Shown here: positions 5,913-53,305 of the stretch, piece by piece | Numbering within the stretch: the first letter of the stretch is position 1 | Layout of the letters: every line of letters starts with the position of its first letter | DNA from: Candidatus Uhrbacteria bacterium | GTDB lineage: Bacteria > Patescibacteriota > Patescibacteriia > UBA9934 > GWF2-40-263 | Reading direction: 5' to 3' | DNA length: 54,255 nt | NCBI GenBank assembly: GCA_903843045.1 | Contig: CAIMOJ010000027.1 | Span: 1-54,255 of the forward strand | The notes under the pieces: generated by a model | The model's database searches: none | Told to the model about the DNA's origin: nothing | What the model saw: only the letters and a program-made list of their open reading frames with translations | Translations under genes and position numbers: made by a program

Positions 5913-7292
5913 ATGAAGCGCACAAAGATCGTCTGCACCATCGGCCCGGCGTCCGACGCCCCCGCGACATTGTCCGCGATGATCAAGTCCGGGATGAACG
6001 TCGCGCGGCTCAATTTTTCGCACGGGACGCACGCCGGGCACGCGAAGCTCGTGCGGACGATTCGCGCGACGGCGAAGAAAGCGGGCGAAACGGTCGCGAT
6101 CCTCGGCGACCTGCAGGGACCGAAGATTCGGATCGGGGTCGTGCCGGATGCCGGAGTCGTTCTGAGGAACGGCGAGACGGTTACGCTTCCGGTGACGTAC
6201 GCGGCGCTGCACAAGGACGTGAAGAGGGGCGACCGAGTTATGATCGACGACGGGATCATCGAGGTGTCGTACGTGAGCGGGAAGGCCGGGTTCATGACGG
6301 CCAAGGTCGTGAACGGCGGGACGGTCACGTCGCACAAGGGGATGAACTTTCCGGATTCGACCCTTCGCGTTTCCTCGCTGACCGCGAAGGACAAGGAGGA
6401 TATTATTTTTGGTGTTCAACAGGGGGTGGACTGGATGGCACTGTCGTTTGTCACTTCCGCGAAGGACGTGAAGACGTTGCGGAGGTTGATTCGGGAGGCG
6501 AGGAGGGTCGGAGGGTCGGAGGGTCGAAGGTTCGAAGAGCCTCGGATTATTGTCAAAATTGAAAAGCACGAGGCGCTCGACAACTTTGACGAGATTCTGG
6601 CCGCGACGGACGCGGTGATGGTGGCGCGCGGCGACCTTGGGGTGGAGACGCCGGCCGAGGACGTTCCGCTGCGACAGAAGGAGATCGTTGAGAAGTGCCG
6701 CCTCGCGGGAAAGCCCGTCGTCGTCGCGACGCAGATGCTCGACTCGATGATGCGCAACCCGCGCCCGACGCGCGCCGAGGTTTCCGACGTGGCGAACGCG
6801 GTGATTGATCACGCGGACGCGGTGATGCTCTCGGGGGAGTCCGCAAGCGGAAAGTATCCGAGGCAGGCGGTTGCCATGATGGCGAAGATCGTCGTGGAGA
6901 CCGAGGCGTCGAAGTTCGACGACGTGGCCGCCGAGGAGATCGCGGGGTCCGGAGTCGGCGCGCTCAGCGAGACGCTGAAGGCATTCGTGGCGGGAGATCT
7001 CATCTCGGGAATCGTCGCGTCGCATTCGTCCGCCCCCTGGGCGGAGAGGCTCATGATCGCGCGGCCCGAGGTTCCGCTGTTCCTTGCCTGCGCCACGGAA
7101 GCCGAGGCGCGCCAGGTCAGCATCCGCTGGGGCGTGCGTGCATTCGTGCTGAAGTCGAAGTCGTCCGTCGGGTTCGCCGAGAAGGCGATCGCCGAGCTGC
7201 GGGCCCGCAAGTGGGTCAAGAAGGGCGCGCACCTCGCGGTCGTCACGGGGGATGAGAAGGGCGCCGGGTTCGACGTGGCGGTGGCAAGATAA
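5913..7292 (+). CDS. pyk: Pyruvate kinase (carries an in-frame repeat insertion)
   Basis: [61 protein letters not shown]. Confidence 0.97.
6503..6545 (+). repeat. Octamer-unit repeat, solo arm in frame within pyk
   Basis: GAGGGTCG x3, AAGGTTCG, AAGAGCCT, CGG; 6517-6541 is identical to 8381-8405. Confidence 0.85.
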
Positions 7293-7783: not shown

Positions 7784-7812
7784 AGAATAGGCCGAGCCGG
7801 GCAGAATGTCAA
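7784..7812 (-). promoter_or_regulatory. Sigma70 promoter of the 7345-7716 gene
   Basis: TTGACA-N17-TATTCT; the -35 contains the TGA stop of the upstream gene. Confidence 0.7.
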
Positions 7813-9073
7813 TGGACAATTGATTTTCCTACCAGATGCCCGGCCGCCCATGACGCCTGGAGGTTGAAGCCGCCGGTGAACCCGTCCACGTCCAAAATCT
7901 CTCCGGCGAAGTACAGTCCGGGACAAATGCGCGATTCCATGGTCGTCGGGTCCACTTCGGAAAGGTCGACCCCGCCCGCGGTCACGAACTCGTCGCCGGC
8001 GCCGCGCTGGATGACGTGGAGCGGGATCGCCTTGAGCCACGCGGCCGTCCGGGCCATGTCCTTTTTGGCGACCTGGTTCGCGCTCTTTGTTTTGGAAATG
8101 CCAAGGTGGTCGACGACGATGTCGGCCAGGGACTTGGGGACGAGGAGGCCGAGGACGTTGTCGAACCGCTTGTTCGGGTTTGCCGTCGCGACCGTCTCGA
8201 CGCGGGCGCGGAGGGCGTCGAGCGTCTCGTCGGGGAACAGGTCGATAGCGATTTCAAGCGGATTGGCCGCGTCGTACGGCTCGAACGCGACGATGGAAGA
8301 GAGCGCGAACACCGCCGGGCCGCTGACGCCCTTGTGGGTGAAGAGGAACGGGCCGGTGAAGGAGGGGAGGGTCGAAGGGGCGGAGGGTCGAAGGTTCGAA
8401 GAGCCGCGGTTAGAAGAGATTGTGGCGCGCTCGAACGAGAGACCCGAGATTTCCTTTGGCCAGGTCTCGGACGTGAAGAATGCATTGAGGCTCGGAGCAA
8501 GCGCGGTGATCGTGTGTCCAAGCGCCGTGGCAAACGCATACCCGTCGCCGGTCGAACCCGTGTGTCGGTACGCCTGGCCGCCCGTCGTGAGGACGAGTTT
8601 GTCGGCGACGATCGGCTCGGGTGACTCCTTCGTAAAGATAAAAAATTCATCGCCGCGCTTTTCGACGCGGGTCGCGGAAGTTTTCAAAAGGATGCGGACG
8701 TTTGACAGCGCGAACAGTTCCTCGAACGCGCGGACGATGTCGTGGCCGTCGTCGGAGACGGGGAACACGCGGAGGTCGGCCTGCGTCTTGAGCGGGACGC
8801 CGTGCGACTCGAACCAGGCCTCGACCGCCTCGGGCGGGAAGGCGTACATGGCGGAGGTGAGAAACTTTCCCCCGCGCGGATATCTCGCGAGGACGGTCTT
8901 CACGTCGCGGATCCCGGTCGTGACGTTGCAGCGGCCGCCGCCGGAGATGATGACCTTCTTTCCGAGCCCGTCGTTGCGTTCGATCAAAAAGATTTCGATG
9001 GACGGATCGTCCTCGTGCAACGTCGCGGCGGCCATCAGCCCGGCCGCGCCCCCTCCGATGATCGCGACTCGCA

Positions 9074-9077
<4 letters not shown>
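7809..9077 (-). CDS. NAD(P)/FAD-dependent oxidoreductase, HI0933/YhiN/BaiN family (carries an in-frame repeat insertion)
   Basis: IIGGGAAG, GKKVIISGGGRCNVT, LFTHKGVSGP, VTAGGV, GEILDVDGFTGGFNLQ; ATGA overlap with ABC-F stop. Confidence 0.92.
8367..8409 (+). repeat. Octamer-unit repeat, solo arm in frame (antisense reading) within the HI0933 gene
   Basis: GAGGGTCG-AAGGGGCG-GAGGGTCG-AAGGTTCG-AAGAGCCG-CGG. Confidence 0.85.
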
Positions 9078-10825
<1,748 letters not shown>

Positions 10826-14739: not shown

Positions 14740-14817
14740 TGGCGGACCGGAAGGGATTCGAACCCTCGATCTTCTCCGTGACAGGGAGACATGTTAACCG
14801 GACTACACCACCGGTCC
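14740..14817 (-). tRNA. tRNA-Asp (GTC), encoded CCA
   Basis: GGACCGG acceptor pairs CCGGTCC; anticodon arm TCTCC-CTGTCAC-GGAGA; T-loop TTCGAAT; ends GCCA (78 nt). Confidence 0.96.
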
Positions 14818-29174: not shown

Positions 29175-29205
29175 AAAAAACATCCAGCGTCGCTGGATGT
29201 TTTTT
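29175..29205. terminator. Bidirectional terminator shared by smpB and ssrA
   Basis: AAAAAACATCCAGC-gtc-GCTGGATGTTTTTT. Confidence 0.85.
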
Positions 29206-29602
29206 GGTGGAGCTGGGGAGAATCGAACTCCCGTGTAAGGACGCTCAGCCGGATGTTTCTTCAAGCTCAGTCCCGCCTGGATACGTTCGCATGATGTGAG
29301 CGGGACAAAACCCATGCGAACGGTCCCGCCTGCCTCCTCGGTGATGCTGGACGGAAACGGCATCACCCAGCCCGATGCTTATAACACCCGGATCCCGCTA
29401 TCGGACGTCAGGGGACGGATGGGCTGTTGCTATTAGGCGACAACCAGAGAGAAGGTCGGAACGGAGAACGCCGAAGCGATCATGTTCTTGGCCTTCGCGA
29501 AGACGTTGGCAATTGTCTTTTTGCAGGAAGGATTTACGAGGATCCCTACAACCTCGGCTTGCTCATCTGGCCTCCTGTCCCTAGCGAACCCCGGACAGCC
29601 CC
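29205..29602 (-). ncRNA. ssrA: tmRNA, one-piece, tag reading frame ANVFAKAKNMIASAFSVPTFSLVVA
   Basis: 5' GGGGCUG pairs 3' CAGCUCC-ACCA with G3-U70; T-arm GGGAGTTCGATTCTCCC; tag ORF 29510-29433 ends in tandem TAA TAG; adjacent to smpB. Confidence 0.93.
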
Positions 29603-36312: not shown

Positions 36313-36441
36313 GGCTGCGAATAACGTATGAGCTACATATCACACAAATTGTTACGTATTCCTACAAACCAGTGTAATATCAGCATCCGCTGCGATTCGT
36401 AGCAATACGTAGGATGTGCAGCTCATACGTTATTCGCAGCC
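36313..36441. repeat. AT-rich 129-bp element with perfect 22-bp terminal inverted repeats
   Basis: GGCTGCGAATAACGTATGAGCT (36313-34) is the exact reverse complement of 36420-41. Confidence 0.9.
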
Positions 36442-37553: not shown

Positions 37554-37721
37554 TTGCGAATAACGAATTAGTTACTTATTACACATATGCAACGTATTGG
37601 AACGAATGGGTACAAATTCGTCCGTTCGTTTTTTCGTTCTCGCGTCTTTCCCGTTCGAATACGTAGCATCTGTAGCAATACGTTGCATATGTGTAATAAG
37701 TAACTAATTCGTTATTCGCAA
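37554..37721. repeat. AT-rich 168-bp element with perfect 46-bp terminal inverted repeats
   Basis: 37554-37599 is the exact reverse complement of 37676-37721; 76-bp spacer. Confidence 0.93.
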
Positions 37722-40458: not shown

Positions 40459-40596
40459 TGTCCACTAACCTGTTGCCGGGCTTGGGATCCAAACCATGGA
40501 TCTTATGCCTGGCCACATGGTGTGGTCAGCTGTGATTTTGTCAGAAACAAACGGTCTTTCGACCACCACGCCTGGAAACAGGCAAAGGAGCTAACC

Positions 40597-41982
40597 ATGC
40601 TCATCCTCCTCGCCCTTCTGGGCTGCGCCCCCTCCGTCATGCCCTCCAACAACGTCGTCGACACCGGGTCCGTCCCGAGTGACACCGGCACGGACACGGG
40701 CGCGACGAACGACAGTGACAACGACACCGGTTCCGACACGGCGACCGACAGCGGTACCGACTCCGCCGACAGCGGCGCCGGCACGGACACCGGCGCGGCG
40801 GACACCGACACGACCGACAGCGGCGGAACGGACAGCGGGTCCGACACCGGCGCGGCGGACACGGACACCGGCGTCGCCGACACGGACACCGGCACGGCGG
40901 ACACGGACAGCGGCGGAACGGACAGCGGGTCCGACACCGGCACGGTCGACACCGGCGTGGACTGCGGGACGTACGTCTCGAGCTGCGACGGGACCGTCGT
41001 GAGCTGGTGCGAGGGATCCGCGGTCCTCACGTACGACTGCGCGGACGCCGGCAGCTACGAGTGCAGCGATGCCTCGGGCACTGCCGAGTGCGTCTACGTC
41101 GAGACCGACGCGGACCTCGACGGCGTCACCGTCGAGGAAGGCGACTGCGACGACGCGGACGCCACGGTCTACCCCGGCGCCCCAGAGATCGCCGACGACG
41201 GCGTCGACCAGGACTGCTCGGGCGCCGACGAGGTCACGCTCGAGGACGACGTCGACGGCGACGGGTACGGCGTGTCCGAGGACTGCGACGACACGAACCC
41301 CTCGGTCAATCCGGGCGCCGTCGAGACCTGCAACGGGATCGACGACGACTGCGACGCGAGCATCGACGAGGGCCTCACCGGCACCTGGTATGCGGACGCC
41401 GACGGCGACGCGTTCGGAGATGCGGACACGTTCGTGACCGGGGCCTGCTCGGCGGCGAGCGGCTACGTCGCGGACAGCTCCGATTGCGACGACTCCGAGA
41501 TCGACGTCCACCCGGGCGCGGCCGAGATCCCGGACGACGGGATCGACCAGGACTGCGACGGCAGCGACGCCACCATGGCCGAGCTGCAGGACGTTGCGGT
41601 CTGCTCGTCCGGCCAGGAAGCCTGCTTCCGGGACGTCGATGGGAACGGGTCGTACGAGACCCTGCTGATGGACGAGGCCCAGATCTACGGGATGCCGGCG
41701 ACCGCCGAAGTCTACGAGAACGGGTCGGGCACCGGGTGCGGGCTCAGCGGCGACAGCGTCGGCAGCAATGCCGCCGGCTACTACGTCGTCTCGTTCGAAG
41801 GGCTCTCGAGCTGCACCTCCCAGGTGTCGGTCGTGAGCACCAGCGGGTCCTCGACCTACTGGTGGCAGAACTACACGTTCTGTACCGACGGTAGCGACTC
41901 CCAGGGGATCTGCGTGGCCACGGGCACGTTCGACTTCCTGATCGAGATCGACTACCGGAGCTCGACGGGCCTGCGGTTCTAG
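40597..41982 (+). CDS. Lipoprotein with DTG/DSG tract and three MopE-type motifs
   Basis: AAGGAG SD; MLILLALLGC lipobox; three DCDD-x-PGA-E-x-DG-D-DC units. Confidence 0.82.
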   Translation: MLILLALLGCAPSVMPSNNVVDTGSVPSDTGTDTGATNDSDNDTGSDTATDSGTDSADSGAGTDTGAADTDTTDSGGTDSGSDTGAADTDTGVADTDTGTADTDSGGTDSGSDTGTVDTGVDCGTYVSSCDGTVVSWCEGSAVLTYDCADAGSYECSDASGTAECVYVETDADLDGVTVEEGDCDDADATVYPGAPEIADDGVDQDCSGADEVTLEDDVDGDGYGVSEDCDDTNPSVNPGAVETCNGIDDDCDASIDEGLTGTWYADADGDAFGDADTFVTGACSAASGYVADSSDCDDSEIDVHPGAAEIPDDGIDQDCDGSDATMAELQDVAVCSSGQEACFRDVDGNGSYETLLMDEAQIYGMPATAEVYENGSGTGCGLSGDSVGSNAAGYYVVSFEGLSSCTSQVSVVSTSGSSTYWWQNYTFCTDGSDSQGICVATGTFDFLIEIDYRSSTGLRF

Positions 41983-42049
41983 CCCGCACGAAAGGCGTCC
42001 GCATGATGGGACGCAGCGAAGGCAGGCTAAGGAGAGGACAACCACTCTG

Positions 42050-42111
42050 CGCTCCCGACAGGGAAGAGCCGCTCGCTGCGCTCCCGTCCTGTCGGGAGCG
42101 TCTTTCTTTTT
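42050..42111 (+). terminator. Terminator of MopE-motif gene 3
   Basis: CGCTCCCGACAGG / CCTGTCGGGAGCG 13-bp stem then T-rich run. Confidence 0.7.
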
Positions 42112-42124
42112 CCTGGCGTTTCTA

Positions 42125-42153
42125 TTGACAAAGTTCCAGGATCATGATATTAA
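42125..42153 (+). promoter_or_regulatory. Promoter of MopE-motif gene 4
   Basis: TTGACA-N17-TATTAA with TG extension. Confidence 0.65.
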
Positions 42154-42271
42154 TACCACTCGTTTTGGCTGGGAAACCGTGCCAAACGCGAGAAATCAGG
42201 CCCGTTCTTCGGACAATATCACCGGCTGCGGGCCTGACCGTAGCTTCTTCACCCCCCTCACGGAGGATCCA

Positions 42272-43960
42272 ATGCGGATCTATTTCTTGGCTCAGCGTTG
42301 TTTCGCCCTGCTCGTACTCCTGTTGTTTTCCGGCTGCTACTTCATCGGAAATCCCGACGGCGACACGCTGTCCGGGCTGGCCGACTGCAACCCGAACTCG
42401 GACGTTGCGTGCGACAAGGTCGACACCGACGCGGACACCGACGCCGACGCGGACACCGACGCCGATTCCGACGCGGACACCGACACCGACACCAACGTCG
42501 AGACCGGCGACACCGGGGAGACCGGCGACACGGACACGGGCGTTCCGTGCGAGACGTCGACCTGGCATCCGGACTCGGACGGCGACGGCTACGGCGACCC
42601 CGCGACCAGCGCGGAGGCCTGCGACCAACCCGACGGCTACGTGGCCGACGGCACGGACTGCGACGACGCCAGCGCCGACACCTACCCCGGCGCGGCCGAG
42701 CGGTGCGACCTGCAGGACAACGACTGCGACGGCCTGGCCGACGAGAACCTCTCGGAGTCCTGGTACTCCGACTCGGACAACGACGGGTTCGGCGACGAGT
42801 TCGCGAACGTCGACGTGGCCTGCGACGGAACGACCGGCGACCTCGTGGCCGCGCGTGACAGCGACGGCGACGGCGCGGCCGACTTCGACTGCGACGACAG
42901 CAACGCCACGGTCAACCCGCTCGCCGAAGAGGTGTGCGACGAGGCCGACAACGACTGCGACGGCTCGATCGACGAGTCCGGCGCGTTCGGCGAGACGACC
43001 TGGTACGCGGACGCCGACGGCGACGGCTACGGAGCCGGGGCCATGGTGGCCGAGGCCTGCGACGGCGCCTACACGCGCCCCGCCAACGTGTCGAGCCTCG
43101 ACACGGACTGCGACGACGCGCTGAGCGCGACCAACCCGGGCGCGGCTGAGATCTGCGATGGCGCCGACAACGACTGCGACGGCGCGGTGCCGAGCGACGA
43201 GGCGGACCTCGATGGCGACGGCTACAACGTCTGCGCCGGCCTGGACTGCGACGATACATCCGCGGACGCCTACCCGGGCGCCCACGAGAGCTGCGACGGC
43301 GCCGACAACGACTGCGACGGCACCGTCGACGAGAGCGACGCGAGCGACGTGGCCACCTGGTACGTCGACGTCGACGGCGACGGCTACGGCGACGCGGGCA
43401 CGAGCTTCGTCTCGTGCGACGCGCCGATCGGCTACGTGGCCGACGCCAGCGACTGCGATGACTCGGACGCCGCGGTCAACCCCGGTGCGCACGAGGTCTG
43501 CAACGAGATCGACGACGACTGCGACGGCGACGTCGACGTCGCGGCCGAGGATGCCACGGTGTGGTCCACGGACCTCGACGGCGACGGCTACGGTGACGAC
43601 ACCTACGCCAGCTGGCTTGCCTCGTGCGAACAGCCCGACGGCTACGTGGCCGACTTCTCGGACTGCGACGACTCGGACGCGGCGGTCAGCCCGAACGCGG
43701 CCGAGGTGTACGCCAACCTCGTGGACGACGACTGCAACGGGATCGTCGACGACAGCGGGCTCACCTGCTTCCCGGATGCCGACAACGACACGTACGGCGC
43801 CCCGACCGGCGGGATCTACGAGCCCACCGGCGTGTGCGGTACCGCGGGCTACGTCCCTCGGGACAGCGACTGCGACGACACCAACGCCACCACGAACCCC
43901 TCCCGCGCGGAGGTCTACGGCGACGGCGTCGACAACAACTGCGACGGCAGCACGACCTAA
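42272..43960 (+). CDS. Lipoprotein with seven MopE-type motifs and WYxDxDGDGYG units
   Basis: GGAGG SD; lipobox LFSGC; DTDADTDAD tract; seven DCDD...DC(D/N)G units. Confidence 0.85.
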   Translation: MRIYFLAQRCFALLVLLLFSGCYFIGNPDGDTLSGLADCNPNSDVACDKVDTDADTDADADTDADSDADTDTDTNVETGDTGETGDTDTGVPCETSTWHPDSDGDGYGDPATSAEACDQPDGYVADGTDCDDASADTYPGAAERCDLQDNDCDGLADENLSESWYSDSDNDGFGDEFANVDVACDGTTGDLVAARDSDGDGAADFDCDDSNATVNPLAEEVCDEADNDCDGSIDESGAFGETTWYADADGDGYGAGAMVAEACDGAYTRPANVSSLDTDCDDALSATNPGAAEICDGADNDCDGAVPSDEADLDGDGYNVCAGLDCDDTSADAYPGAHESCDGADNDCDGTVDESDASDVATWYVDVDGDGYGDAGTSFVSCDAPIGYVADASDCDDSDAAVNPGAHEVCNEIDDDCDGDVDVAAEDATVWSTDLDGDGYGDDTYASWLASCEQPDGYVADFSDCDDSDAAVSPNAAEVYANLVDDDCNGIVDDSGLTCFPDADNDTYGAPTGGIYEPTGVCGTAGYVPRDSDCDDTNATTNPSRAEVYGDGVDNNCDGSTT

Positions 43961-43973
43961 GCGGTCACTCCCT

Positions 43974-44005
43974 CCGATCGGCACCCTGCCGGTCGGTTTT
44001 TCTTT
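43974..44005 (+). terminator. Terminator of MopE-motif gene 4
   Basis: CCGATCGGCA / TGCCGGTCGG then T run. Confidence 0.7.
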
Positions 44006-44020
44006 GGCCCGGTCGATCGC

Positions 44021-44049
44021 TTGACACGAATTCAATCCTGTGGCATCAT
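44021..44049 (+). promoter_or_regulatory. Promoter of MopE-motif gene 5
   Basis: TTGACA-N17-CATCAT. Confidence 0.55.
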
Positions 44050-44126
44050 TCCCGCTCCTTCACGTGACTGCCCGGATAAGCCGGCTTTTGCGCGTCGGAG
44101 ACCACCAGACAAAAGGCAAAGACAAA

Positions 44127-45683
44127 ATGCTCAAGACGCTCCTCCTTCCGCTGACCATCGCGCTCGCGCTCACCGGTTGCAACGCCTCGGTCGCCCCCGC
44201 CTCCAGCGACGACAACATCGTGCCCGTCTCCGGCGACATGGGCCCCGACGTCGACGGCGACGGCTACGGCTCGGTCGTCGACTGCAACGACGACGACGTC
44301 AACGTCAACCCCGGCGAGCGGGAGACCATCGGCAACGGGATCGACGACGACTGCGACGGCGACGTCGACTGCGACGACAGCGAGGTGCCGATGACCGACT
44401 ACGGTCTCGACGCCGACCGCGACGGGTACTTCGACGACTTCGACGGCGACGGCGCCGTGGACGTGGTCAAGATGTGCGACGACACGGACGAGAACGCGGC
44501 GAAGATCTCCGCGATGACCGGCGGTTCCGGCGACGTCGAGAGCTTCGACCCGATCGTCTACAGCGGCGACCCCTTCACGGGCTACGTGCTCCCCGACGCC
44601 GACTGCGACGACGCGGACGCCGCCGTCAACCCGATGGCCTCCGAGGTCTGCAACGGGATCGACGACGACTGCGACGGCTCGATCGACGACGGCGCGGACC
44701 TGTCCACCTACTACTGGGACGGGGACATGGACGGCTTCGGCAACGCGAGCATCAGCGCGGACGCCTGCGAGCCGGGCGAAGGCTGGGTGCTCGACAGCAC
44801 CGACTGCGACGACGCGGACGCGACGGTCTACCCCGAGGCCCCCGAGCTCTGCGACGAGCAGGCCAACGACTGCCTGACGGCCGACACCTGGATGCCCGCC
44901 GACGAGACGGATCTCATGGGCACCTGGTACGCCGACGGCGACACCGACGGCTACGGCGACGCGAGCATGCCGACCTCGGCCTGCGCGCAGCCCGAGGGCA
45001 CCGTGGCCGGCGACACCGACTGCGACGACGCCGAATGGGCCATCAACCCCGGCGCCGACGAGCTCTGCGACACGATCGACAACAACTGCGACGGATCGAT
45101 CGACGGCACGGACTCGGTTGACCAGGTCACCCGGTACCGCGACCACGACGGTGACCTGTACGGCGATGAGACCTTCACCGCCACGAGCTGCAACGCGCCG
45201 CTCGGCTACATCGACACGAACGGCGACTGCGACGACAACGCGGCCACCACCTACCCGGGCGCTCCCGAGCTCATGAACGGCATCGACGACAACTGCAACA
45301 CGACCATCGACGATGGCGCGACCTGCAGCATCGAGATCGAGCTGTTCACCGGCGACGCGGGCACCGCGACCATCGACGGCACGGTCAGCAACAACACGGC
45401 CCTCGACGGCAACTGGCAGCCGATGGGCGTCGACGGGGTCAGCGTGTCGAGCACCTCGCTCGGCGGCGACGACTGGTACTACGACGTCATGCTCTCCGAC
45501 TGCCTCGGCTCCGGCGACGACATCCGCGTCGACGCCGCGTTCTCCGACGGCACCTGGGGCTGCGACAGCGTCGGCACCCCGTCCGGCAGCCTCCGCGGCT
45601 GGCAGGACGGCTCGCCCCTCAGCGTCGCCTACTCGGCCGACGACGCCGACGGACACTGCGTCCTCGTCGTGACGAACCCCTAG
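44127..45683 (+). CDS. Lipoprotein with five MopE-type motifs and a C-terminal beta-sandwich-like domain
   Basis: Lipobox ALTGC; five DC(D/N)D...DC units; followed by CCGGCC/GGCCGG-T6 terminator at 45699-45736. Confidence 0.82.
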   Translation: MLKTLLLPLTIALALTGCNASVAPASSDDNIVPVSGDMGPDVDGDGYGSVVDCNDDDVNVNPGERETIGNGIDDDCDGDVDCDDSEVPMTDYGLDADRDGYFDDFDGDGAVDVVKMCDDTDENAAKISAMTGGSGDVESFDPIVYSGDPFTGYVLPDADCDDADAAVNPMASEVCNGIDDDCDGSIDDGADLSTYYWDGDMDGFGNASISADACEPGEGWVLDSTDCDDADATVYPEAPELCDEQANDCLTADTWMPADETDLMGTWYADGDTDGYGDASMPTSACAQPEGTVAGDTDCDDAEWAINPGADELCDTIDNNCDGSIDGTDSVDQVTRYRDHDGDLYGDETFTATSCNAPLGYIDTNGDCDDNAATTYPGAPELMNGIDDNCNTTIDDGATCSIEIELFTGDAGTATIDGTVSNNTALDGNWQPMGVDGVSVSSTSLGGDDWYYDVMLSDCLGSGDDIRVDAAFSDGTWGCDSVGTPSGSLRGWQDGSPLSVAYSADDADGHCVLVVTNP

Positions 45684-45752
45684 TCCCTCGGGACTCCTCC
45701 GGCCCCTGCGCCCACCAGCGCATCGGCCGGTTTTTTGTTATACTGTCTCCGT

Positions 45753-47231
45753 ATGCTCGTGCTTTTTCTCATCGCCGCCCTCGGCTTCCTCATCCTCACC
45801 TTTTTTCGCCCCCTCACCACCCTCGCGATCCTCGCCCTCTACCTCCCGTTCGAATCCGTCCTCCTCAAGCTCGCGCCCGACGAGATCTACGTCTACGCGC
45901 GCTTTTTCTCCGAGGGTCTCATCTACGTCCTCGCCGCGGTCGTCATCTGGCGCGCCCTGACGGGCACCATTCGCCTCCGCTCGACGCAGGCCGACCTTCC
46001 GTTCATCCTGTTTCTCGTCATCCTCCTCGCCTCCGTCGCCATCAACGCCGTCTCGCCGACGATCGCGATTCTTGGCACGCGCCAGATCATCCGGTTCATC
46101 CTCGTGTTTTTTATCGCCGTCCAGCTGAAGCCGACCCGCGACTACGTCCGCAATCTCACGCTTGCCCTGTTCGCGGTCGTCGGCCTCGAGTCTGTCCTCG
46201 GCATCGTCCAGTCGCTCTCCGGCGGATCGCTCGACCCGCTGCTCCTTCCGTCCGACGCGCATTCGCTCGGCGAGGTGACGCTGACCGGCGGCGTCGACGA
46301 GTTCTGGGAGCCGGGGTCGCGAGTGTTCGCGACGCTTGGGCGATATGATCGGCTTGGGAATTTCCTCTATTTCTTTTTGGCATTGGCGGTCGGATTTGCG
46401 TACGAGTTCTTTTTTATGCGTCGAGGGTCCGCGCCAATCTTGGAGAGAGGATCTTCCTGGCGCGCGGAGATCATCGCGCTGTTCGCCGTCGCCATCCCGA
46501 CGCTCATCCTCACCTACTCCCGCGCCTCGTGGTTCGCGTTCCTCCTTGCGTTCCTTTTCGTCGCCATCTGGATCAAGCGCGACCGCCGCGTGATGCTCGC
46601 CGTCGTGACCGTCATCGTCGGGGTTGTCGCCTACGTCGGAATCACAGGCCTGAACGTCCGCTACATCACCGAGGCGCCCGGACAGACGCTCGTGGAGCGA
46701 TTCTATGAGACGTTCAGCTACGCCCGCTGGCGCGGCGAATACTACGGCCTTGGACGCGTCTACTGGATGGTCCAGACCCCGCTCACCGTCGTGGCCGCGT
46801 CGCCGCTCTTCGGCTTCGGTCCCGGCCAGTTCGGCGGGGGAGCGGTCGTGGCGCTTGGCAACACGAAGGTGTACGAGCAGCTCGGCCTTCCGTTCGGCGT
46901 CTTCGGCACCGACGGGATCATCGACAACAACTGGTTCTCGCTCTGGGGCGAGACAGGCTGCCTCGGGATCTTCTTCTTCCTATGGATGTACCTCGGCCTG
47001 ATCGTCCACTGCGTCCGCGTATACCGACAAAGCAACGATCCGTTCGTCCGCGCCCTCTCGATCGGCGTCGCCGCCGCAATGCTCGGCGTCGCCATGAACG
47101 CGTTTTTGTCCACGGTGTTTGAGATCAGAACGCTCGCGTTCTACGTATGGATGTACGCGGGGTTCGTGGTGGTGCTGGGGGAAGGGGAGAATAGGGTTCC
47201 GAGGGGCGAAGGTTCGAAGAGCCTCGGGTAA
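45753..47231 (+). CDS. O-antigen ligase/Wzy_C family membrane protein
   Basis: RVFATLG, LTYSRASW, PLFGFGPGQF, IDNNWFSLWGETGCLG; many TMs; TGtTATACT-N8-ATG; last ~10 codons derive from the repeat arm. Confidence 0.82.
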   Translation: MLVLFLIAALGFLILTFFRPLTTLAILALYLPFESVLLKLAPDEIYVYARFFSEGLIYVLAAVVIWRALTGTIRLRSTQADLPFILFLVILLASVAINAVSPTIAILGTRQIIRFILVFFIAVQLKPTRDYVRNLTLALFAVVGLESVLGIVQSLSGGSLDPLLLPSDAHSLGEVTLTGGVDEFWEPGSRVFATLGRYDRLGNFLYFFLALAVGFAYEFFFMRRGSAPILERGSSWRAEIIALFAVAIPTLILTYSRASWFAFLLAFLFVAIWIKRDRRVMLAVVTVIVGVVAYVGITGLNVRYITEAPGQTLVERFYETFSYARWRGEYYGLGRVYWMVQTPLTVVAASPLFGFGPGQFGGGAVVALGNTKVYEQLGLPFGVFGTDGIIDNNWFSLWGETGCLGIFFFLWMYLGLIVHCVRVYRQSNDPFVRALSIGVAAAMLGVAMNAFLSTVFEIRTLAFYVWMYAGFVVVLGEGENRVPRGEGSKSLG

Positions 47232-47644
47232 CGATATGCTGTTTACCTATAAGGATCTGACTGTTTGGAACAAGGCCGTGGAGTTGGCTGATATTGTCTA
47301 TAAACTGACGAGGTCTTTTCCAACGGAGGAGAAGTGCGGGCTTGTTTCTCAAATGCGAAGATCCGCCGTCTCAATTCCGTCGAATATTGCCGAGGGGCGT
47401 CTGCGAGGCTCCGACAAGTCTTGTCGAAATTTTCTTCTCATTAGCTTCGGTTCCGCAGGAGAACTCGATACGCAGATCCAAATCGCAAAACGGATTCAGG
47501 AAACAGCGAGCCTTGACTTTCGTGTCGCCGAATCTCTCTTGGATGAAATTCTTCGAATGCTCAACCGCATGATCGAACAGTTGTCTGCGGCAGAGCACAC
47601 AAACCAATAAGCCCTCTTCTTGGCTCTTCGAACCTTCGCCCCTC
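47201..47644. mobile_element. IVS-like element: four-helix-bundle gene enclosed by perfect 23-bp inverted repeats
   Basis: GAGGGGCGAAGGTTCGAAGAGCC (47201-23) and its exact reverse complement (47622-44); mobility is inferred, no recombinase present. Confidence 0.65.
47236..47610 (+). CDS. Four helix bundle protein (23S rRNA IVS protein / TIGR02436-like, Avd-related)
   Basis: YKDLTVWNKA, FPTEEK, LVSQMRRSAVSIPSNIAEG, SAGELDTQI; visibly more AT-rich than its neighbours. Confidence 0.92.
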   Translation: MLFTYKDLTVWNKAVELADIVYKLTRSFPTEEKCGLVSQMRRSAVSIPSNIAEGRLRGSDKSCRNFLLISFGSAGELDTQIQIAKRIQETASLDFRVAESLLDEILRMLNRMIEQLSAAEHTNQ

Positions 47645-47670
47645 ATCACCCCTCCGAACCCTTTGCTCGT

Positions 47671-48918
47671 ATGCGCATCATCCAAGCCAACAAATTCTAC
47701 TTTATGAAGGGCGGGGCCGAGCGGTATATGCTCGACCTTTCCGCGTGGCTCGCATCGCAGGGCCATGAGATTCTTCCGTTCGCGATGCAACACCCGCAGA
47801 ATCTTCCCGCGACAACCTCGCCGTTCTTTCCCTCGTTCGTCGCGACCGAGAATGTCCGTCTCAACCTTGCGGGCGCGAAGACGTTCCTTCGCATGTTCTT
47901 CTCGTCGGAGGCATGGCAGAAGATGGCGCAGCTCGTCGACGCGAAACGGCCCGACGTCGCGCACGTCCATAACATCTATACCCAGCTGTCCCCGTCGATC
48001 CTCGACGCGCTCAAGTCCCGCCGCGTCCCCGTCGTGATGACCGTGCACGATCACCACCTGATTTCCCCTCAGTACAACGTCTGGGCCGCCGGCTGCGGCC
48101 CCGACGCGTCCGTTCCGAGCGTTGGCATGTCGACGGGAATCATCGCGGGCACGCTCTCCCGCTTCCACAAGAATTCCTACGCCGCATCGTTCGCGCAGGT
48201 TGCCGCCTTTAAGTTCCACTACAACCGCGGATCCTATCGCAATGCCGTCGACGTCTTCCTGTGCCCGTCCGACTACATCCGCCGGAAGATGATCGCGGCC
48301 GGGTTTCCCGAGGCGAAGCTCCGGACGAACCACTATGGGGCGGACCCGTCGTCCGTGGCGCCGTCCTACGGGCACAAGGGCTACATGCTGTACGTCGGCC
48401 GCCTCTCGGAGGAGAAGGGGGTCGAGACGGTCATCCACATTGCGCGCCAGCTGCCCGACGTCCCGTTCAAGATCGTCGGCACCGGGCCCGAGGAAGACCG
48501 GCTTCACGCGCTTGCGCACGGGTCGCCGAACATCGAGTTCGTCGGGTTCCGCTCGGGCGAGCTGCTTGCCGAGCTATACGCCGGCGCGATGGCCGTGCTC
48601 GCCCCGAGCCGCGTCCACGAGATCTTCCCGCTCATCACGCTCGAGGCGATGGTCCACGGCAAGCCGGTCATCGGCAGCAGCGTTGGCGGAATGCCCGAGG
48701 TCGTGGAGGATCGCGTCACGGGCCTCCTCGTGGCCCCGAACGACCTGCACGGCTGGGTCGAGGCGGTCATGCGACTGGCCTTCGACGAGGATTTCCGCCT
48801 CGGACTGGCGAGAAACGCCCGATTGGCGGCCGAAACGACGTTTCATGTCAAGAACCACCATGCGCGGGTTCTGAAGGCGTACGAGGACGCGCTTGCCATG
48901 CGCTCGGCGTCCGTCTAG
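47671..48918 (+). CDS. Glycosyltransferase family 4 (GT-B)
   Basis: NKFYFMKGGAERY, VMTVHD, YVGRLSEEKG, EIFPLITLEAM, GGMPEVV. Confidence 0.92.
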   Translation: MRIIQANKFYFMKGGAERYMLDLSAWLASQGHEILPFAMQHPQNLPATTSPFFPSFVATENVRLNLAGAKTFLRMFFSSEAWQKMAQLVDAKRPDVAHVHNIYTQLSPSILDALKSRRVPVVMTVHDHHLISPQYNVWAAGCGPDASVPSVGMSTGIIAGTLSRFHKNSYAASFAQVAAFKFHYNRGSYRNAVDVFLCPSDYIRRKMIAAGFPEAKLRTNHYGADPSSVAPSYGHKGYMLYVGRLSEEKGVETVIHIARQLPDVPFKIVGTGPEEDRLHALAHGSPNIEFVGFRSGELLAELYAGAMAVLAPSRVHEIFPLITLEAMVHGKPVIGSSVGGMPEVVEDRVTGLLVAPNDLHGWVEAVMRLAFDEDFRLGLARNARLAAETTFHVKNHHARVLKAYEDALAMRSASV

Positions 48919-50926: not shown

Positions 50927-52837
50927 TCAGTTCAATGACATCGTAAACACGTCGCTCGACAGCCCGATGATTTCCGCCCTGCCGTCCTTGTCGATGTCCG
51001 CGGCGGTAACTTCGACGCCGTTGCGCTCGCTTGCGTCCGCGGCGAAGAAGTCCGACTTCTTCTTTCCGTCGCGGTCGAACGTCCGAATTTCCGGGCTCCC
51101 TCCCTTTCCGGCCCCCGCGACGATGTCGCCGATTCCGTCTCCGTCCACGTCGCCGACCGCCACGTTCACGCCGCCCCGGAAGGCGGGATCGTAGGCGAAG
51201 AATCCCGGGTTGATGAGCCTGCCCGCCTTGTTGAAAACCCGTATCTGCGGTCCGCCTCCGACGCCGGCGCCGGCGATGATCTCGTCCACGCGGTCGCCGT
51301 TCAAATCGCCGATGGCCACGTTTACGCCGCCGCGGAACGCCGTGTCATACGCGAAGAAGCCGGGGTTGATGAGATTGCCATCCTTGTTGAAGATGCGAAT
51401 CTGCGGGCCGCCGCCGTTCTCCGTCCCCGTGACGATCTCGACGGACCCGTCGTGCTCGAGGTCGCCGATCGCGAGGTTGATGCCGAGCCTGAACGATTCC
51501 GTGTACGGCGCGAATTTGGCATGGACCGTGCCGTCGGCGTTATAGATCGTGACGTACGTGTTGTCCGCCACGACGGTCTCGTTCTTCCCGTCGCCGTCGA
51601 GGTCGTAGGAATTCACCTGCGTCCCGCCCTTCGCCCTGCGCTCGTAGGCGAAGAACCCGTTGCGCTTCGTCGCGCCGGTCGCGGAGAAGACGTGGGCGAA
51701 TGATCCGTTGAGATAGGTCGCGTCGACGATCGTCTCGAGCGGCCGGAGGAGAAGGATTCCGTCCTGCGGCGCGAGCGTGAGCTTGGAAACGATCGATCCG
51801 TTGTTCGTCGCGGGATCCTGGGTTCCGCGAAGCTTCTCGTATTCGCCGTCGAGCCTCACGGTCTGGGGGACGTTCGTCGGGTTGACGACGGTCTCGCCCT
51901 GCTCGTATTCGCGCTTCCAGACGTTCGACGTCTGTTCCGCGGATCCCTTCGGCGCGCCGAGCGACGCGGAGTACTCGTCGTACGTCCAGAGCTGCGCGTG
52001 GTTCTGCGTGCCGAAGTCGTAGCCGAAGTACCCGTCTCCAAGCAGCGTCGTGGCGAGCCCGAAGCGCATCTTCCGGTAGTTGGTCTGCGCGCCCGTGTTG
52101 TCCGTGTTCACGTTCACGGCGATGACCGCGTCGTGGCCGACCTTCGACGGGAGGGAGAGGTAGTCCTTCGTCTGCGACGTCCACGAGGAGGTCGGATCGC
52201 CGGCGGAAGGGAAGGTCTCGAACATGCGGCCGTTGACGTACGGCGTGAACGACGCCGAGGACGATCCGTTCGTGACGATCACCGCGGAGCTGCCAAGCTT
52301 CGATCGCGTCACGGCCAGGAGGTGCGCGTACCCGCTCTTCCAGTCGTCGCGGTCCTGCACCTCGTCGTAAAAGATTCCATCCCAGAGTCCCGTGCCCATC
52401 ACGTTGGTCTTCGCGAACTCGGCGAGATAATCCGACCATCCGGAGTTCAGGTCGAGCGCGGTCGTGTTCGGCCAGATGGAAACGCGCCCGCCGTTCGCGT
52501 CCTTCAGCCACCAGTCGGGACGGATCCCGCGCTTCATCTGCGCGTGGAGCGGATCGGACCAGAAGGCGTTGTTCCACGAGACGGTCGGGACGTACGCGAG
52601 GATGATGATGTCGGGGTTCAGTTTTCGCACGGCGGAAAAAAACGGCTTGTTGTATACTTGGGCCTCGGACGGGATGACGATCAGGTCGAAGGAGGACAGC
52701 GTCGCGATGGTCGCCTGGTTCTCCAGCGCGGATCCGGACATCAGGTAGTAGTTCGACGTCCGCACAAAGTCGCCGTTCGCCGCGAGCGCGGCAACGGGGA
52801 AGAGGAGGGAAGTCAGGATGATCGCGAGGTACTTCAT
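50927..52837 (-). CDS. Secreted putative glycoside hydrolase (TIM barrel, GHL15/GH114-like) fused to FG-GAP/VCBS repeats
   Basis: Signal peptide; WDGIFYDE, NGRMFETF, MRFGLATTLL; four GD(L/V)xGDG-type repeats with GGPQIRxF. Confidence 0.7.
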   Translation of the reverse strand: MKYLAIILTSLLFPVAALAANGDFVRTSNYYLMSGSALENQATIATLSSFDLIVIPSEAQVYNKPFFSAVRKLNPDIIILAYVPTVSWNNAFWSDPLHAQMKRGIRPDWWLKDANGGRVSIWPNTTALDLNSGWSDYLAEFAKTNVMGTGLWDGIFYDEVQDRDDWKSGYAHLLAVTRSKLGSSAVIVTNGSSSASFTPYVNGRMFETFPSAGDPTSSWTSQTKDYLSLPSKVGHDAVIAVNVNTDNTGAQTNYRKMRFGLATTLLGDGYFGYDFGTQNHAQLWTYDEYSASLGAPKGSAEQTSNVWKREYEQGETVVNPTNVPQTVRLDGEYEKLRGTQDPATNNGSIVSKLTLAPQDGILLLRPLETIVDATYLNGSFAHVFSATGATKRNGFFAYERRAKGGTQVNSYDLDGDGKNETVVADNTYVTIYNADGTVHAKFAPYTESFRLGINLAIGDLEHDGSVEIVTGTENGGGPQIRIFNKDGNLINPGFFAYDTAFRGGVNVAIGDLNGDRVDEIIAGAGVGGGPQIRVFNKAGRLINPGFFAYDPAFRGGVNVAVGDVDGDGIGDIVAGAGKGGSPEIRTFDRDGKKKSDFFAADASERNGVEVTAADIDKDGRAEIIGLSSDVFTMSLN

Positions 52838-53150: not shown

Positions 53151-53232
53151 GAGGAGGGTTCGTAGGGTTGAGGAGGGTCGAAGGTTCGAAGGGTCGAGGT
53201 TCTTCGAACCTGGAACCCTGGTCACCCTAACC
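53151..53232. repeat. Gene-less palindromic copy of the octamer-unit repeat
   Basis: AGGTTCGAAG (53182-91) / CTTCGAACCT (53202-11) perfect IR, flanked by AGGGTT / AACCCT units. Confidence 0.8.
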
Positions 53233-53305
53233 CAAGTTTGTCCACACCAGTGTAGCCAAAATCATCTAAAAAGTCCACTAAAACCGTGCAAACCACTCCA
53301 AACCC

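Follow-up and report, generated by a model that had tools for sequence, protein, structure and literature searches.

What is a tandem array of short units doing inside the reading frame of a pyruvate kinase, and by which route did it arrive there? The question is raised by a stretch of 54,255 nt from a Candidatus Uhrbacteria genome, referred to here as the window. The genome studied (G000) is a metagenome assembly of 76 contigs, 96% complete, and was compared with eight congeners, all the genomes compared being metagenome-assembled drafts. The gene and its array are located as follows:

5913-7292, forward strand: pyruvate kinase (pyk), 459 aa (Pfam PK, 7.2e-111; PK_C, 9.6e-8)
6502-6545, forward strand: single arm of period 8, in frame, within the loop that joins barrel helix 4 to strand 5 (nhmmer, TRF)

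The layout reported for this array in a preliminary description, made from the sequence alone, is exact: positions 6503-6510, 6511-6518 and 6519-6526 each read GAGGGTCG, 6527-6534 reads AAGGTTCG and 6535-6541 reads AAGAGCC. The same holds for its in-frame readthrough, since codons 6501-6545 of the ORF at 5913-7292 give 15 residues and then IIVKIE. The piece comprises 43 bases, with five 8-base units and the start of a hairpin tip, and is translated as about 13 additional residues (197-209) in a surface loop of the enzyme. TRF assigned to it a period of 8, 4.1 copies and 92% matches. Positions 11-54 of the nhmmer arm profile align to 6502-6545 (E 1.8e-9), and the boundaries of this span coincide exactly with those of the segment of pyruvate kinase that is variable.

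The preliminary description put the loop at about 9 residues longer than that of E. coli PykF; in phmmer alignments it has 9 additional residues relative to Geobacillus PK (2E28, the best PDB match of the protein, 1.7e-92) and 10 relative to S. aureus PK (3T05). Counted from SF(V) up to the KIE strand, the enzyme has 34 residues; among 73 diverse pyruvate kinases the mode of this count is 25 (41 of them) and only two exceed 34, and other enzymes of the Uhrbacteria type have 28. In orthologues that lack the DNA repeat, the loop falls short of this length. In congeners G005 and G007, which carry no repeat, RRLI is separated from the IIVKIE strand by 4-5 residues, and in other genera by about 10 (KxAxKPGQVL), without similarity to the 13-residue insert. 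In an AlphaFold2 model of the enzyme (mean pLDDT 88.2, pTM 0.87), the insert is predicted to extend the fourth barrel helix (residues 183-203) and to form a coil (204-210) before the strand at 211-216, its block being the least confident part of the A domain (pLDDT 68). The reading of the insert as a surface loop fits this model, and the loop would be at the side of the TIM barrel that points away from the active site.

The dispersed repeat that dominates G000 has an eight-base period, and the pyk segment is one of its arms. When up to 3 mismatches are allowed, the 24-nt core of this repeat matches 5 sites in the window, where 100 dinucleotide-preserving shuffles gave an expectation of 0.00, and 46 in the whole genome. 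With up to 2 mismatches, GGTCGAAGGTTCGAAG has 72 occurrences in G000 and from 1 to 12 in each of the eight congeners. The 61 profile matches in the genome resolve into 16 abutting hairpins, one cassette and 20 single arms, and these are the three forms of the family: arms around an IVP gene, abutting hairpins of about 95 nt, and single arms. Examples of the first two in the window are:

47181-47227, forward strand: left arm of the cassette (nhmmer E 1.7e-9; inverted repeat I17, 30 nt, 90% complementary)
47236-47610, forward strand: IVP cargo gene, encoding a 124-aa four-helix bundle of the 23S rRNA intervening-sequence family, which is that of Avd (PF05635, 1.6e-33)
47620-47667, reverse strand: right arm of the cassette, reverse-complementary to the left one (nhmmer E 5e-7)
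53155-53233, no strand assigned: gene-less hairpin with abutting arms, intergenic (inverted repeat and profile match)

The 16 hairpins are near-perfect and mainly intergenic. The one at 53155-53233 reaches -40.8 kcal/mol (z -2.96), which indicates that the full element folds. The pyk arm folds locally no better than shuffled sequences (z -0.32), and the local RNA or DNA structure of the in-gene arms does not go beyond shuffles. In the window, Rfam detected a tmRNA and tRNA only, and no rRNA.

A second single arm of the family lies in an unrelated gene of the window:

7809-9092, reverse strand: HI0933-like FAD/NAD(P) flavoprotein, 427 aa (Pfam HI0933_like, 7.6e-76)
8367-8409, forward strand: single arm of the same family as that in pyk, with the G-rich strand on the forward strand (nhmmer E 3.9e-9)

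The 25-nt identity claimed between 6517-6541 and 8381-8405 is exact and stops at both ends. As its gene runs on the reverse strand, the arm at 8367-8409 is translated from the opposite strand, as 15 residues. It is restricted to G000 and G003, with a diverged copy in the latter, and the proteins of six congeners are 10 aa shorter there.

This second copy bears on the simplest account of the array, in which slippage of native pyk sequence produced the octamers locally and the likeness to other copies is convergence. Three perfect GAGGGTCG units are what slippage would leave, the native loop DNA of other genera (AAGCCGGGTCAAGTTCTTCCTCGC) is faintly like the unit, and unit number is known to vary in the S23p intervening sequence of Coxiella burnetii, with three to four GACAGAT units (PMC4990558). 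Against this, the non-periodic tip AAGAGCC is part of the 25-nt match to the HI0933 copy, the core is present 72 times across the genome, the same family forms hairpins and flanks an IVP gene, and the pyk arrays of congeners each match a family dispersed in their own genome. A purely local origin is highly improbable, and because the array shares a non-periodic tip with distant copies, slippage is secondary at most. The three identical GAGGGTCG units of the pyk copy are absent from the consensus arm, so some local slippage has probably acted too.

Single arms and complete elements differ in where they reside. Genes, mapped with a crude ORF/GC3 filter, contain 18 of the 20 single arms versus 2 of the 17 hairpins and cassette (Fisher p 1.7e-6), and each host gene cited here was confirmed by Pfam or NCBIfam. 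The hosts include the synthetases LeuRS, IleRS, ValRS, ArgRS and PheT; MurC, MurE, LigA (twice), TsaD, a UvrD-type helicase and Pol III delta'; and an RsmE-type methylase, an M16 peptidase, a GT4 and WecG/TagA. Complete hairpins stand in frame within the G000 genes for UvrB and a RecJ-like DHH protein. The in-gene and hairpin copies measure 35-95 nt, and orthologues without the insert are shorter at the loops that bear arms. The MurC arm is present in G000 only, the site being empty in all eight congeners, and the ArgRS and LigA arms are common to G000 and G003.

In-gene arms are translated in either orientation and in several frames, and the host frames of the roughly 20 copies all stay open. 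The consensus arm has zero stop codons across all six frames, and therefore any copy with a length multiple of three reads through. At least five unrelated peptides result from arm DNA (RRVEGSKG, GRRFEE, SSNLRPS, FEPSTL and LRTFDPS). A DNA-level, selfish nature is shown by the fact that one arm is read either way round, and in several frames, across about 20 housekeeping genes with no relation to each other. The proposal that a selfish repeat is remodelling the surface loops of enzymes is thereby supported: loops without the repeat are shorter, the boundaries match the repeat, and there are about 20 hosts.

The comparison with congeners showed that the pyk site is shared and the repeat is not. 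In six of the eight, a different periodic repeat of 7-8 bases occupies identical pyk junctions. Among these, G003 and G008 have units of the ATCACTCA type, G006 a complete palindrome of the GGCTGAAA type, G004 GGCCTCNC and G002 an array of the GCTACAC type. The sequence ATCACTCAATCACTC occurs 57 times in G003, 48 times in G008 and once in G000. The pattern of the same site with another family was also found in ArgRS, MurE, LeuRS, IleRS, PheT, TsaD and ValRS, the G002 LeuRS having a whole hairpin in frame. Since the same loops bear different repeats in related species, they appear to be repeatedly rewritten by selfish DNA. Both pyk flanks and the reading frame of G000 are collinear with G003, at 94.5% DNA identity outside the loop, and on this comparison the pyk copy is recent, as G003 bears a different repeat at the same junctions. 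Strong selection of a few permissive loops together with a high insertion rate could alone yield much of the same-site pattern.

The collinearity also bears on whether a mis-join induced by the repeat could have put the arm in pyk, an idea to which a metagenome assembly in 76 contigs lends some plausibility. A repeat of 43 nt is shorter than a normal read, the frame and flanks follow those of G003, exactly this position is occupied by a repeat or a clean short loop in eight independent assemblies, and about 20 further in-frame copies keep their host frames open. An assembly artefact is accordingly extremely improbable.

For the pair G003 and G008, third-position identity in pyk is 0.35, which indicates synonymous saturation, and the loop arrays are identical at 38 of 45 positions with the same junctions; this synonymous-site signal comes from that one pair, with the per-codon breakdown of the array counted by hand. 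Such conservation at synonymous positions is a DNA-level signal and speaks against selection of the insert as a peptide, be it as a loop, charged and flexible, that adjusts the regulation of pyruvate kinase or that binds a partner. That the insert is in frame, hydrophilic and in a loop would suit a selected peptide, as would the long life of some copies, such as the ArgRS and LigA arms common to G000 and G003. Yet the peptides that one DNA encodes in different genes are unrelated, as are those of the pyk loop between sister species, and G005 and G007 manage without an insert. An adaptive peptide is thus very unlikely, and the translated pyk arm, a hydrophilic extension rich in Gly, Arg and Glu, would be a passenger and not an adaptation.

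The cassette of the window links the family to a protein gene. Its left arm (47181-47227) provides the final codons and the stop of an O-antigen-ligase-like gene at 45735-47231, and its right arm (47620-47667) stops just short of the ATG of a GT4 gene at 47674, so that the cassette stands between protein genes and not in helix 25 or 45 of 23S rRNA. There are four IVP genes in G000, each with its own periodic inverted arms, and the genus has 33 PF05635 matches; about 22 of 27 IVP genes of the genus are flanked by such arms, and sister IVPs bear related ones. A control search for IVP genes also matched Bacteroides thetaiotaomicron. For four congeners, G003, G008, G004 and G006, the pyk insert corresponds to an arm family found at IVP cassettes. 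In G006 no IVP gene was detected, though arms are present in genes, and the cassette type of G000 is absent from the sister species at the shared site.

We consider it probable that the repeat arms of G000, which are IVS-like and linked to cassettes, were copied into tolerant loops and are re-written there as passengers. A copy-in or overwrite process would write arms into loops through template switching with, or conversion by, the numerous copies in the genome, with short matches to the unit seeding the copying and no cut-and-paste transposition. Selection would purge copies except in tolerant surface loops, and the family active in a genome would re-write or replace resident arrays. The IVP protein may act as a family-specific factor. 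In LeuRS, a native GAGAGGGTCG, itself a match to the unit, is directly followed by a clean gain of 21 nt; the microhomology argument draws on a handful of junctions judged by eye. In IleRS the arm substitutes native residues, with net length unchanged, and in TsaD the replacement is partial.

These substitutions also weigh on an origin of the MITE type, in which a trans-acting transposase inserts whole hairpins of about 95 nt or cassettes and, in genes, one arm is later deleted, leaving a footprint. Whole hairpins do exist in frame, in UvrB and the RecJ-like gene of G000, pyk of G006 and LeuRS of G002, and about half of the single arms retain the tip-proximal end (profile positions at or beyond 50). 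On the other side, native sequence in IleRS and TsaD was replaced and not inserted into, and no target-site duplication was found at the filled and empty junctions compared. Decay should leave single arms between genes as well, and just 2 of 20 are intergenic. The cargo of the cassette is the IVP and not a transposase. A search for PF01797 (Y1/RAYT) gave no match in G000, 96% complete and the genome with the largest family, and weak matches in the eight congeners. A transposase-driven origin therefore seems rather unlikely, and we retain the copying of arms into tolerant loops as the preferred explanation.

A route through a DGR-like reverse transcriptase was rejected as a general mechanism, as G004, G005 and G007 are without one, yet G004 is rich in in-gene arms. 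The sole reverse transcriptase of G000 (C9:22231-22839) does not adjoin an IVP gene.

A further possibility, which we hold only tentatively, is that IVP cassettes and periodic arms constitute a system that writes and overwrites short arrays at fixed positions, the tips of surface loops of essential proteins and certain gene junctions, targeted by the site or DNA structure and not by sequence. The IVP-arm family active in each genome would then convert the arrays already in loops. Such a system would explain the presence of arrays 84% identical at identical pyk junctions of two species despite the synonymous saturation of their pyk genes, and of an unrelated array at the same junctions in a sister species 94.5% identical. 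It would likewise explain why rRNA intervening sequences, unrelated in sequence, are always in helices 25 and 45.

These results extend to the Candidate Phyla Radiation (CPR) the Rickettsia paradigm of selfish DNA translated within essential proteins, and tie it to a long-unexplained family, that of 23S rRNA intervening sequences and Avd-like four-helix-bundle proteins. About 20 natural loop insertions, in pyruvate kinase, aminoacyl-tRNA synthetases, Mur ligases and LigA among others, flag permissive sites for protein engineering. For annotation, caution is advised, as repeat DNA, and not adaptation, can be the source of additional residues in the loops of CPR proteins. The combination of same-site, different-family arrays with conservation at synonymous sites offers a testable handle on the spread of the repeats and the role of the IVP.

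Among known systems, the heptamer repeats (STRR) and small dispersed repeats of cyanobacteria, reportedly described by Elhai and coworkers in 2008, are said to form 7-8-nt arrays with replacement of the unit type at the same locus. They serve here as a lead only; the periodicity of 7-8 nt and the very small, mobile-looking units are the points of likeness. STRR are not known to be linked to IVP genes, nor to loops read in frame in essential enzymes.

The REP/REPIN-RAYT systems, for which intragenic REPs are also described (PMC3116915), resemble the present family in that short hairpins are amplified in one genome and are species-specific, and in that the repeats co-vary with a linked protein gene, here the IVP clades and their arms. 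They differ in having a single GC-rich stem, in contrast to the periodic arrays found here, and in their Y1 transposase, which was not detected in G000; unlike RAYT, the linked protein is here a four-helix bundle without known catalytic activity.

The likeness to the 23S rRNA intervening sequences of Leptospira and Coxiella burnetii (PMC4990558) includes a PF05635 gene within inverted repeats that form a long stem, arms of short tandem units of 7-8 nt, gene-less hairpin versions, and one tolerated site occupied by different elements in different lineages. Those elements reside in rRNA helices 25 and 45, whereas the present ones lie between protein genes, or as arms and hairpins in coding sequence. 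Excision by RNase III cannot rescue a protein gene, and therefore only in-frame, stop-free copies survive. In the literature searched, we found no description of IVS-type arms translated within proteins, nor of such repeats in Patescibacteria.

The analogy drawn at the outset with Rickettsia palindromic elements (RPEs) stands for how the repeat works and fails for membership. RPEs are about 100-150 bp long with one conserved peptide each (Ogata et al. 2000; PMC10969869, PMC1779305). As with RPEs, the genome is small and a dispersed family lies in frame in a large set of unrelated housekeeping genes, where it is translated as additional loop residues without destroying the proteins, and whole in-frame palindromes are present here too (UvrB, RecJ-like). 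Unlike RPEs as described, the copies are mostly single arms of about 35-45 nt with period 8, in several frames and both orientations, and the pyk copy is not itself a foldable palindrome; the link to an IVP cargo gene and the different families in one loop of sister species are further differences. What G000 and its congeners add to the RPE-type picture is the arms of IVS-like cassettes, their presence in genes mainly as single arms, and the occupation of the same loops by different families in sister species.

Within the pyruvate kinase (Pyk) gene, three GAGGGTCG units occupy positions 6503-6526, followed by AAGGTTCG at 6527-6534 and AAGAGCC at 6535-6541, and the ORF translates this stretch as a 15-residue peptide located directly ahead of IIVKIE. 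The units, positions and in-frame reading reported in the preliminary description are exact to the base in the sequence and the ORF translation, and the 25-bp identity with an unrelated gene was also recovered: 6517-6541 equals 8381-8405 base for base, the match ending at both edges. A 24-nt core presented five matches in the window with at most 3 mismatches, while none is expected from shuffles.

5913-7292, plus strand: pyruvate kinase ORF (Pfam PK, 7.2e-111)
8381-8405, minus-strand gene: second copy, in a HI0933-type flavoprotein gene (Pfam)

As the second copy lies in a minus-strand gene, the opposite strand of the repeat is translated there, giving another 15-residue peptide. The lengthening of the Pyk loop noticed earlier holds against solved structures, with 9 extra residues over 2E28 and 10 over 3T05. 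Counted from SF(V) as far as the KIE strand, this Pyk has 34 residues, against 28 in other Uhrbacteria-type Pyks and most commonly 25 among 73 diverse Pyks. The insert could be mapped on an AlphaFold2 model (mean pLDDT 88.2, pTM 0.87), where it makes up the last part of barrel helix 4 (183-203) together with the coil 204-210, ahead of strand 5 (211-216), and is the least confident part of the A domain (68). In TIM barrels, loops ahead of the barrel strands lie on the side of the barrel away from the catalytic face. In-gene arms folded locally no better than shuffled sequences (z -0.32 and -1.23), and a role for them in local structure is unsupported.

In the source genome (G000; 1.28 Mb, 61% G+C, 76 contigs, the window being contig C27), the core search found 46 copies and a 54-nt arm profile 61 matches. 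Each arm, which is one half of the dispersed inverted repeat, is composed of about five degenerate 8-base units, and the consensus arm, read from the sequence, is free of stop codons in each of the six frames. The family presents three forms: 16 abutting inverted pairs, one spaced pair and 20 single arms. The abutting pairs form hairpins that are near-perfect, about 95 nt long and closed by a 4-nt tip (AGGGTTCGnAGGGnTGAGAGGGTCGAAGGTTCGAAGAGCC GCGG TTCTTCGAACC...), and the hairpins mostly adjoin gene starts and ends. Loose core matches number 72 in G000 versus 1-12 per genome in the eight other species of the genus (congeners, G001-G008); the family is genome-specific in abundance. A known RNA family for the repeat was unsupported, the Rfam matches in the window being only a tmRNA and a tRNA.

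53155-53233: complete hairpin, folding at -40.8 kcal/mol (z -2.96)
29205-29602, minus strand: tmRNA gene (Rfam, 139 bits)
14743-14817, minus strand: tRNA gene (Rfam)

Single arms were found within long ORFs of coding-type base composition in 18 of 20 cases, versus 2 of the 17 paired elements (hairpins and cassette) in genes (Fisher p 1.7e-6); thus single arms are mostly in genes and hairpins mostly outside. The gene map of G000 is crude, and all named host genes were verified against NCBIfam or Pfam.

Host genes of the repeat in G000 (single-arm hosts by NCBIfam/Pfam)
Single arm: Pyk, HI0933 flavoprotein
Single arm: LeuRS, IleRS, ValRS, ArgRS, PheT
Single arm: MurC, MurE, LigA (two sites), TsaD
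Single arm: UvrD-type helicase, Pol III delta', RsmE-type methyltransferase
Single arm: M16 peptidase, GT4 glycosyltransferase, WecG/TagA enzyme
C7:11109-11199 and C39:14427-14516: complete hairpins of about 90 nt read in frame

The in-frame hairpins lengthen UvrB by 31 residues and a RecJ-like DHH protein by 30. The coding strand is G-rich in 10 in-gene arms and the orientation is opposite in 8, and the peptides depend on the frame (RRVEGSKG, GRRFEE, SSNLRPS, FEPSTL, LRTFDPS), which shows that one and the same arm DNA is translated in many frames across the genes of G000.

Pyk was searched in 40 relatives and the proteins were aligned. Outside the genus the loop reads KxAxKPGQVL-PR, with a median of 8 aligned residues, while lengths in the genus were 14, 13, 23, 2, 12, 13 and 2. 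Only this loop and the linker between the A and C domains are hypervariable in the Pyk of the genus; the linker, at about residue 342 (window about 6940), has 8-9 additional residues in G002 and G008 and 5 in G006. The repeat-free orthologues of G005 and G007 have a very short loop rather than an equally long one, and the other congeners each carry a different periodic repeat at the same pyk junctions.

Repeats in the pyk loop of congeners (Pyk identity to G000)
G003 (94%): CATCACTC AATCACTC CATCACTC AGTCACTC
G008 (68%): TCAATCAC x4
G006 (89%): full palindrome, GGCTGAAA-type units
G004 (78%): GGCCTCNC x4
G002 (70%): GCTACAC-type units

These comparisons show that the segment in pyk copies a dispersed repeat specific to this genome, and that the loop, short in repeat-free orthologues, acquired it recently as a lineage-specific gain. 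Together with the translation in many frames, this therefore supports the earlier proposal of a selfish repeat that remodels enzyme loops.

The ATCACTCA unit is a genome-wide family in G003 (57 matches) and G008 (48), with a single match in G000. Outside the loop, the pyk DNA of G000 and G003 is 94.5% identical, but the two arrays bear no relation to each other. Between the pyk genes of G003 and G008, synonymous sites have reached saturation (third-position identity 0.35), yet the two arrays are identical at 38 of 45 positions with shared junctions; by hand count, the third base is identical in 9 of the first 10 same-amino-acid codons, which has a probability of about 5e-4 against 0.35 (hand binomial). 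These pyk comparisons, one measured and one made by eye, argue for an ongoing process at the DNA level.

For the other host genes, a ten-segment chimeric query found orthologues in nine genomes, all of them draft metagenome assemblies, and 71 regions were compared. The MurC arm occurs only in G000, all eight congeners being 8 residues shorter; the HI0933 arm occurs only in G000 and G003, with six congeners 10 residues shorter; and the arm at LigA site 1 is in G000 and G003. In ArgRS, the arms of G000, G001 and G003 are of the GGGTCGAA type; G004 has the GGGCGCAT type, G002 the GGTTCGTA type, G008 the CTACCAAC type and G006 another hairpin. The G002 arm in ArgRS ends GGTTCAGAGAGCCTAGG, resembling the cassette arm of that genome (GGTTCTGAGAGCCTTAAGG), and the G000 arm ends GGTTCGAAGGGCCGCG, resembling the G000 consensus. 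MurE arms are of the GGGTCGAA type in both G000 and G006, of the GGCTGAAA type in G003 and of the GGCGCAT type in G004, while three genomes are empty at this site. LeuRS, IleRS, PheT, TsaD and ValRS presented similar patterns, including a whole hairpin in frame in G002 LeuRS and CCACCACT x4 in G006 IleRS. As judged from these sequence alignments, the same loop with a different repeat is the general rule across host genes. A partial alternative is selection alone, sifting randomly placed insertions so that they persist in a few permissive loops; this would account in part for the same-site pattern but leaves the synonymous-site conservation unexplained.

The DNA-level process was considered at filled and empty sites, aligned in a few cases and read by eye, so that the reading, including microhomology, is qualitative. 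In LeuRS, a clean gain of 21 nt follows immediately on a native GAGAGGGTCG that is identical to the beginning of a unit, and unit-like native sequence is present in MurC, MurE and ValRS (AAGATCGAAGGGGC, GTGGCCGAAGGGGC and GAGAAGGGGAAGG). In IleRS native residues are replaced by the arm with length unchanged, and in TsaD 16 residues stand in place of 12 native ones. No target-site duplication was seen at the aligned sites. At these few junctions, seeded copying or an overwrite seems more likely than cut-and-paste. As to mechanism and ALTERNATIVES, templated copying from the numerous copies in the genome would bring arms in or write them over existing sequence, the family active in each genome would rewrite the resident arrays, and IVP proteins (PF05635 four-helix bundles of the 23S rRNA intervening-sequence, IVS, family) may take part. 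A RAYT-type transposase is unsupported, as none occurs in G000, and so is a reverse-transcriptase (RT) route, as three genomes, the arm-rich G004 among them, lack RT. The sole RT gene of G000 is near a contig end (C9:22231-22839; PF00078, 2.4e-23; frame of about 365 aa). In G003, an RT at C26:6482-7087 adjoins a weak Avd-like match at C26:7356-7637, and this pair is probably a diversity-generating retroelement.

IVP genes occur in cassettes, between inverted arms:

47181-47227 and 47620-47667: cassette arm pair, 393 nt apart
C51:11820-12110: fourth, divergent IVP gene of G000, with one in-frame TGA and 43-nt AAGTTCG-type heptamer arms

The arms at 47181-47667 enclose only one gene, for a 124-aa PF05635 23S rRNA intervening-sequence protein (1.6e-33). 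The four PF05635 genes of G000 each lie between inverted arms whose periodic unit differs from gene to gene (GGGTCGAA-type, GGGCGCAT, GGGCTGAA and AAGTTCGA), and AACTTCG heptamer arrays (10) are as common genome-wide as octamer arrays. Across the genus, about 22 of 27 IVP genes are bracketed in this way. In the maximum-likelihood tree sister IVPs have related arms: G000/G002 with GGTTCGrA arms (support 100/99), G000/G003 with GGGCGCAT arms, and four IVPs grouping in one clade (100/98) with GAGTGAT/GAGTCGT arms. The ATCACTCA pyk inserts of G003 and G008 are the reverse complement of GAGTGAT, the GGCCTCNC insert of G004 is that of GAGGCCGCG, and the GGCTGAAA insert of G006 also matches an IVP-cassette arm family. 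These matches demonstrate, at the sequence level, that in-frame loop inserts and cassette arms are linked.

Between the O-antigen-ligase-like and GT4 genes, G000 and G002 have a GGTTCGrA-armed IVP cassette, G003 and G004 a GGCTTAAG/GGCCGCGA-armed one, and G005 and G007 nothing. In L146 (G001:C65) and L147 (G006:C25), the loci upstream of the GT4 orthologue, precisely this junction is occupied by a DUF559/Vsr-like nuclease gene between unrelated inverted repeats CTCCCCTCTCCTTTAAAAGGAGAGGGACAGGGTGAGGTCTAAGG. Whole cassettes therefore also turn over at the same site, and this turnover departs from species relationships. Hairpins of the DUF559-nuclease repeat type are also in frame in LeuRS, IleRS, LigA and TsaD loops of congeners.

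Other repeats were observed in the window. Two AT-rich long hairpins, at 36313-36441 and 37554-37721 against the 61% G+C background, have sequence in common (GGCTGCGAATAACG...) and flank a segment of about 1.1 kb; the arms of one are 47 nt and 83% complementary, those of the other 55 nt and 93%, and they may represent another mobile hairpin family. The region 40500-45700 has very large genes of Asp/Cys-rich repeats of about 69-72 codons (CDDxxxxxxPGAxExCNGxDDDCDG-like) and (DT)n-type hexamer runs, resulting in dozens of direct-repeat families. At 51074-51541, a 156-nt unit in three tandem copies (72-75% identity) is inside a long minus-strand ORF.

In the literature searched, neither translation of IVS-type arms within proteins nor repeats of this kind in Patescibacteria were described. 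The present analysis contributes the tie of cassette arms to inserts in loops, comparative evidence that arms are gained, overwrite native sequence and replace one another at the same site, and the synonymous-site argument. The Rickettsia palindromic elements, the analogy first drawn for the insert, are the closest case functionally, and that likeness stands; however, two of their defining features, a foldable unit of about 100-150 bp and one peptide, are absent from the pyk insert family. ORF-bearing IVS elements are the structural home of the repeat family, but they sit in rRNA, while the repeats described here do not. Since the family lacks defining features of both systems, we keep it outside the Rickettsia palindromic elements and the IVS. 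Among the latter, a Coxiella member has tandem heptamers with variable unit number (PMC4990558).
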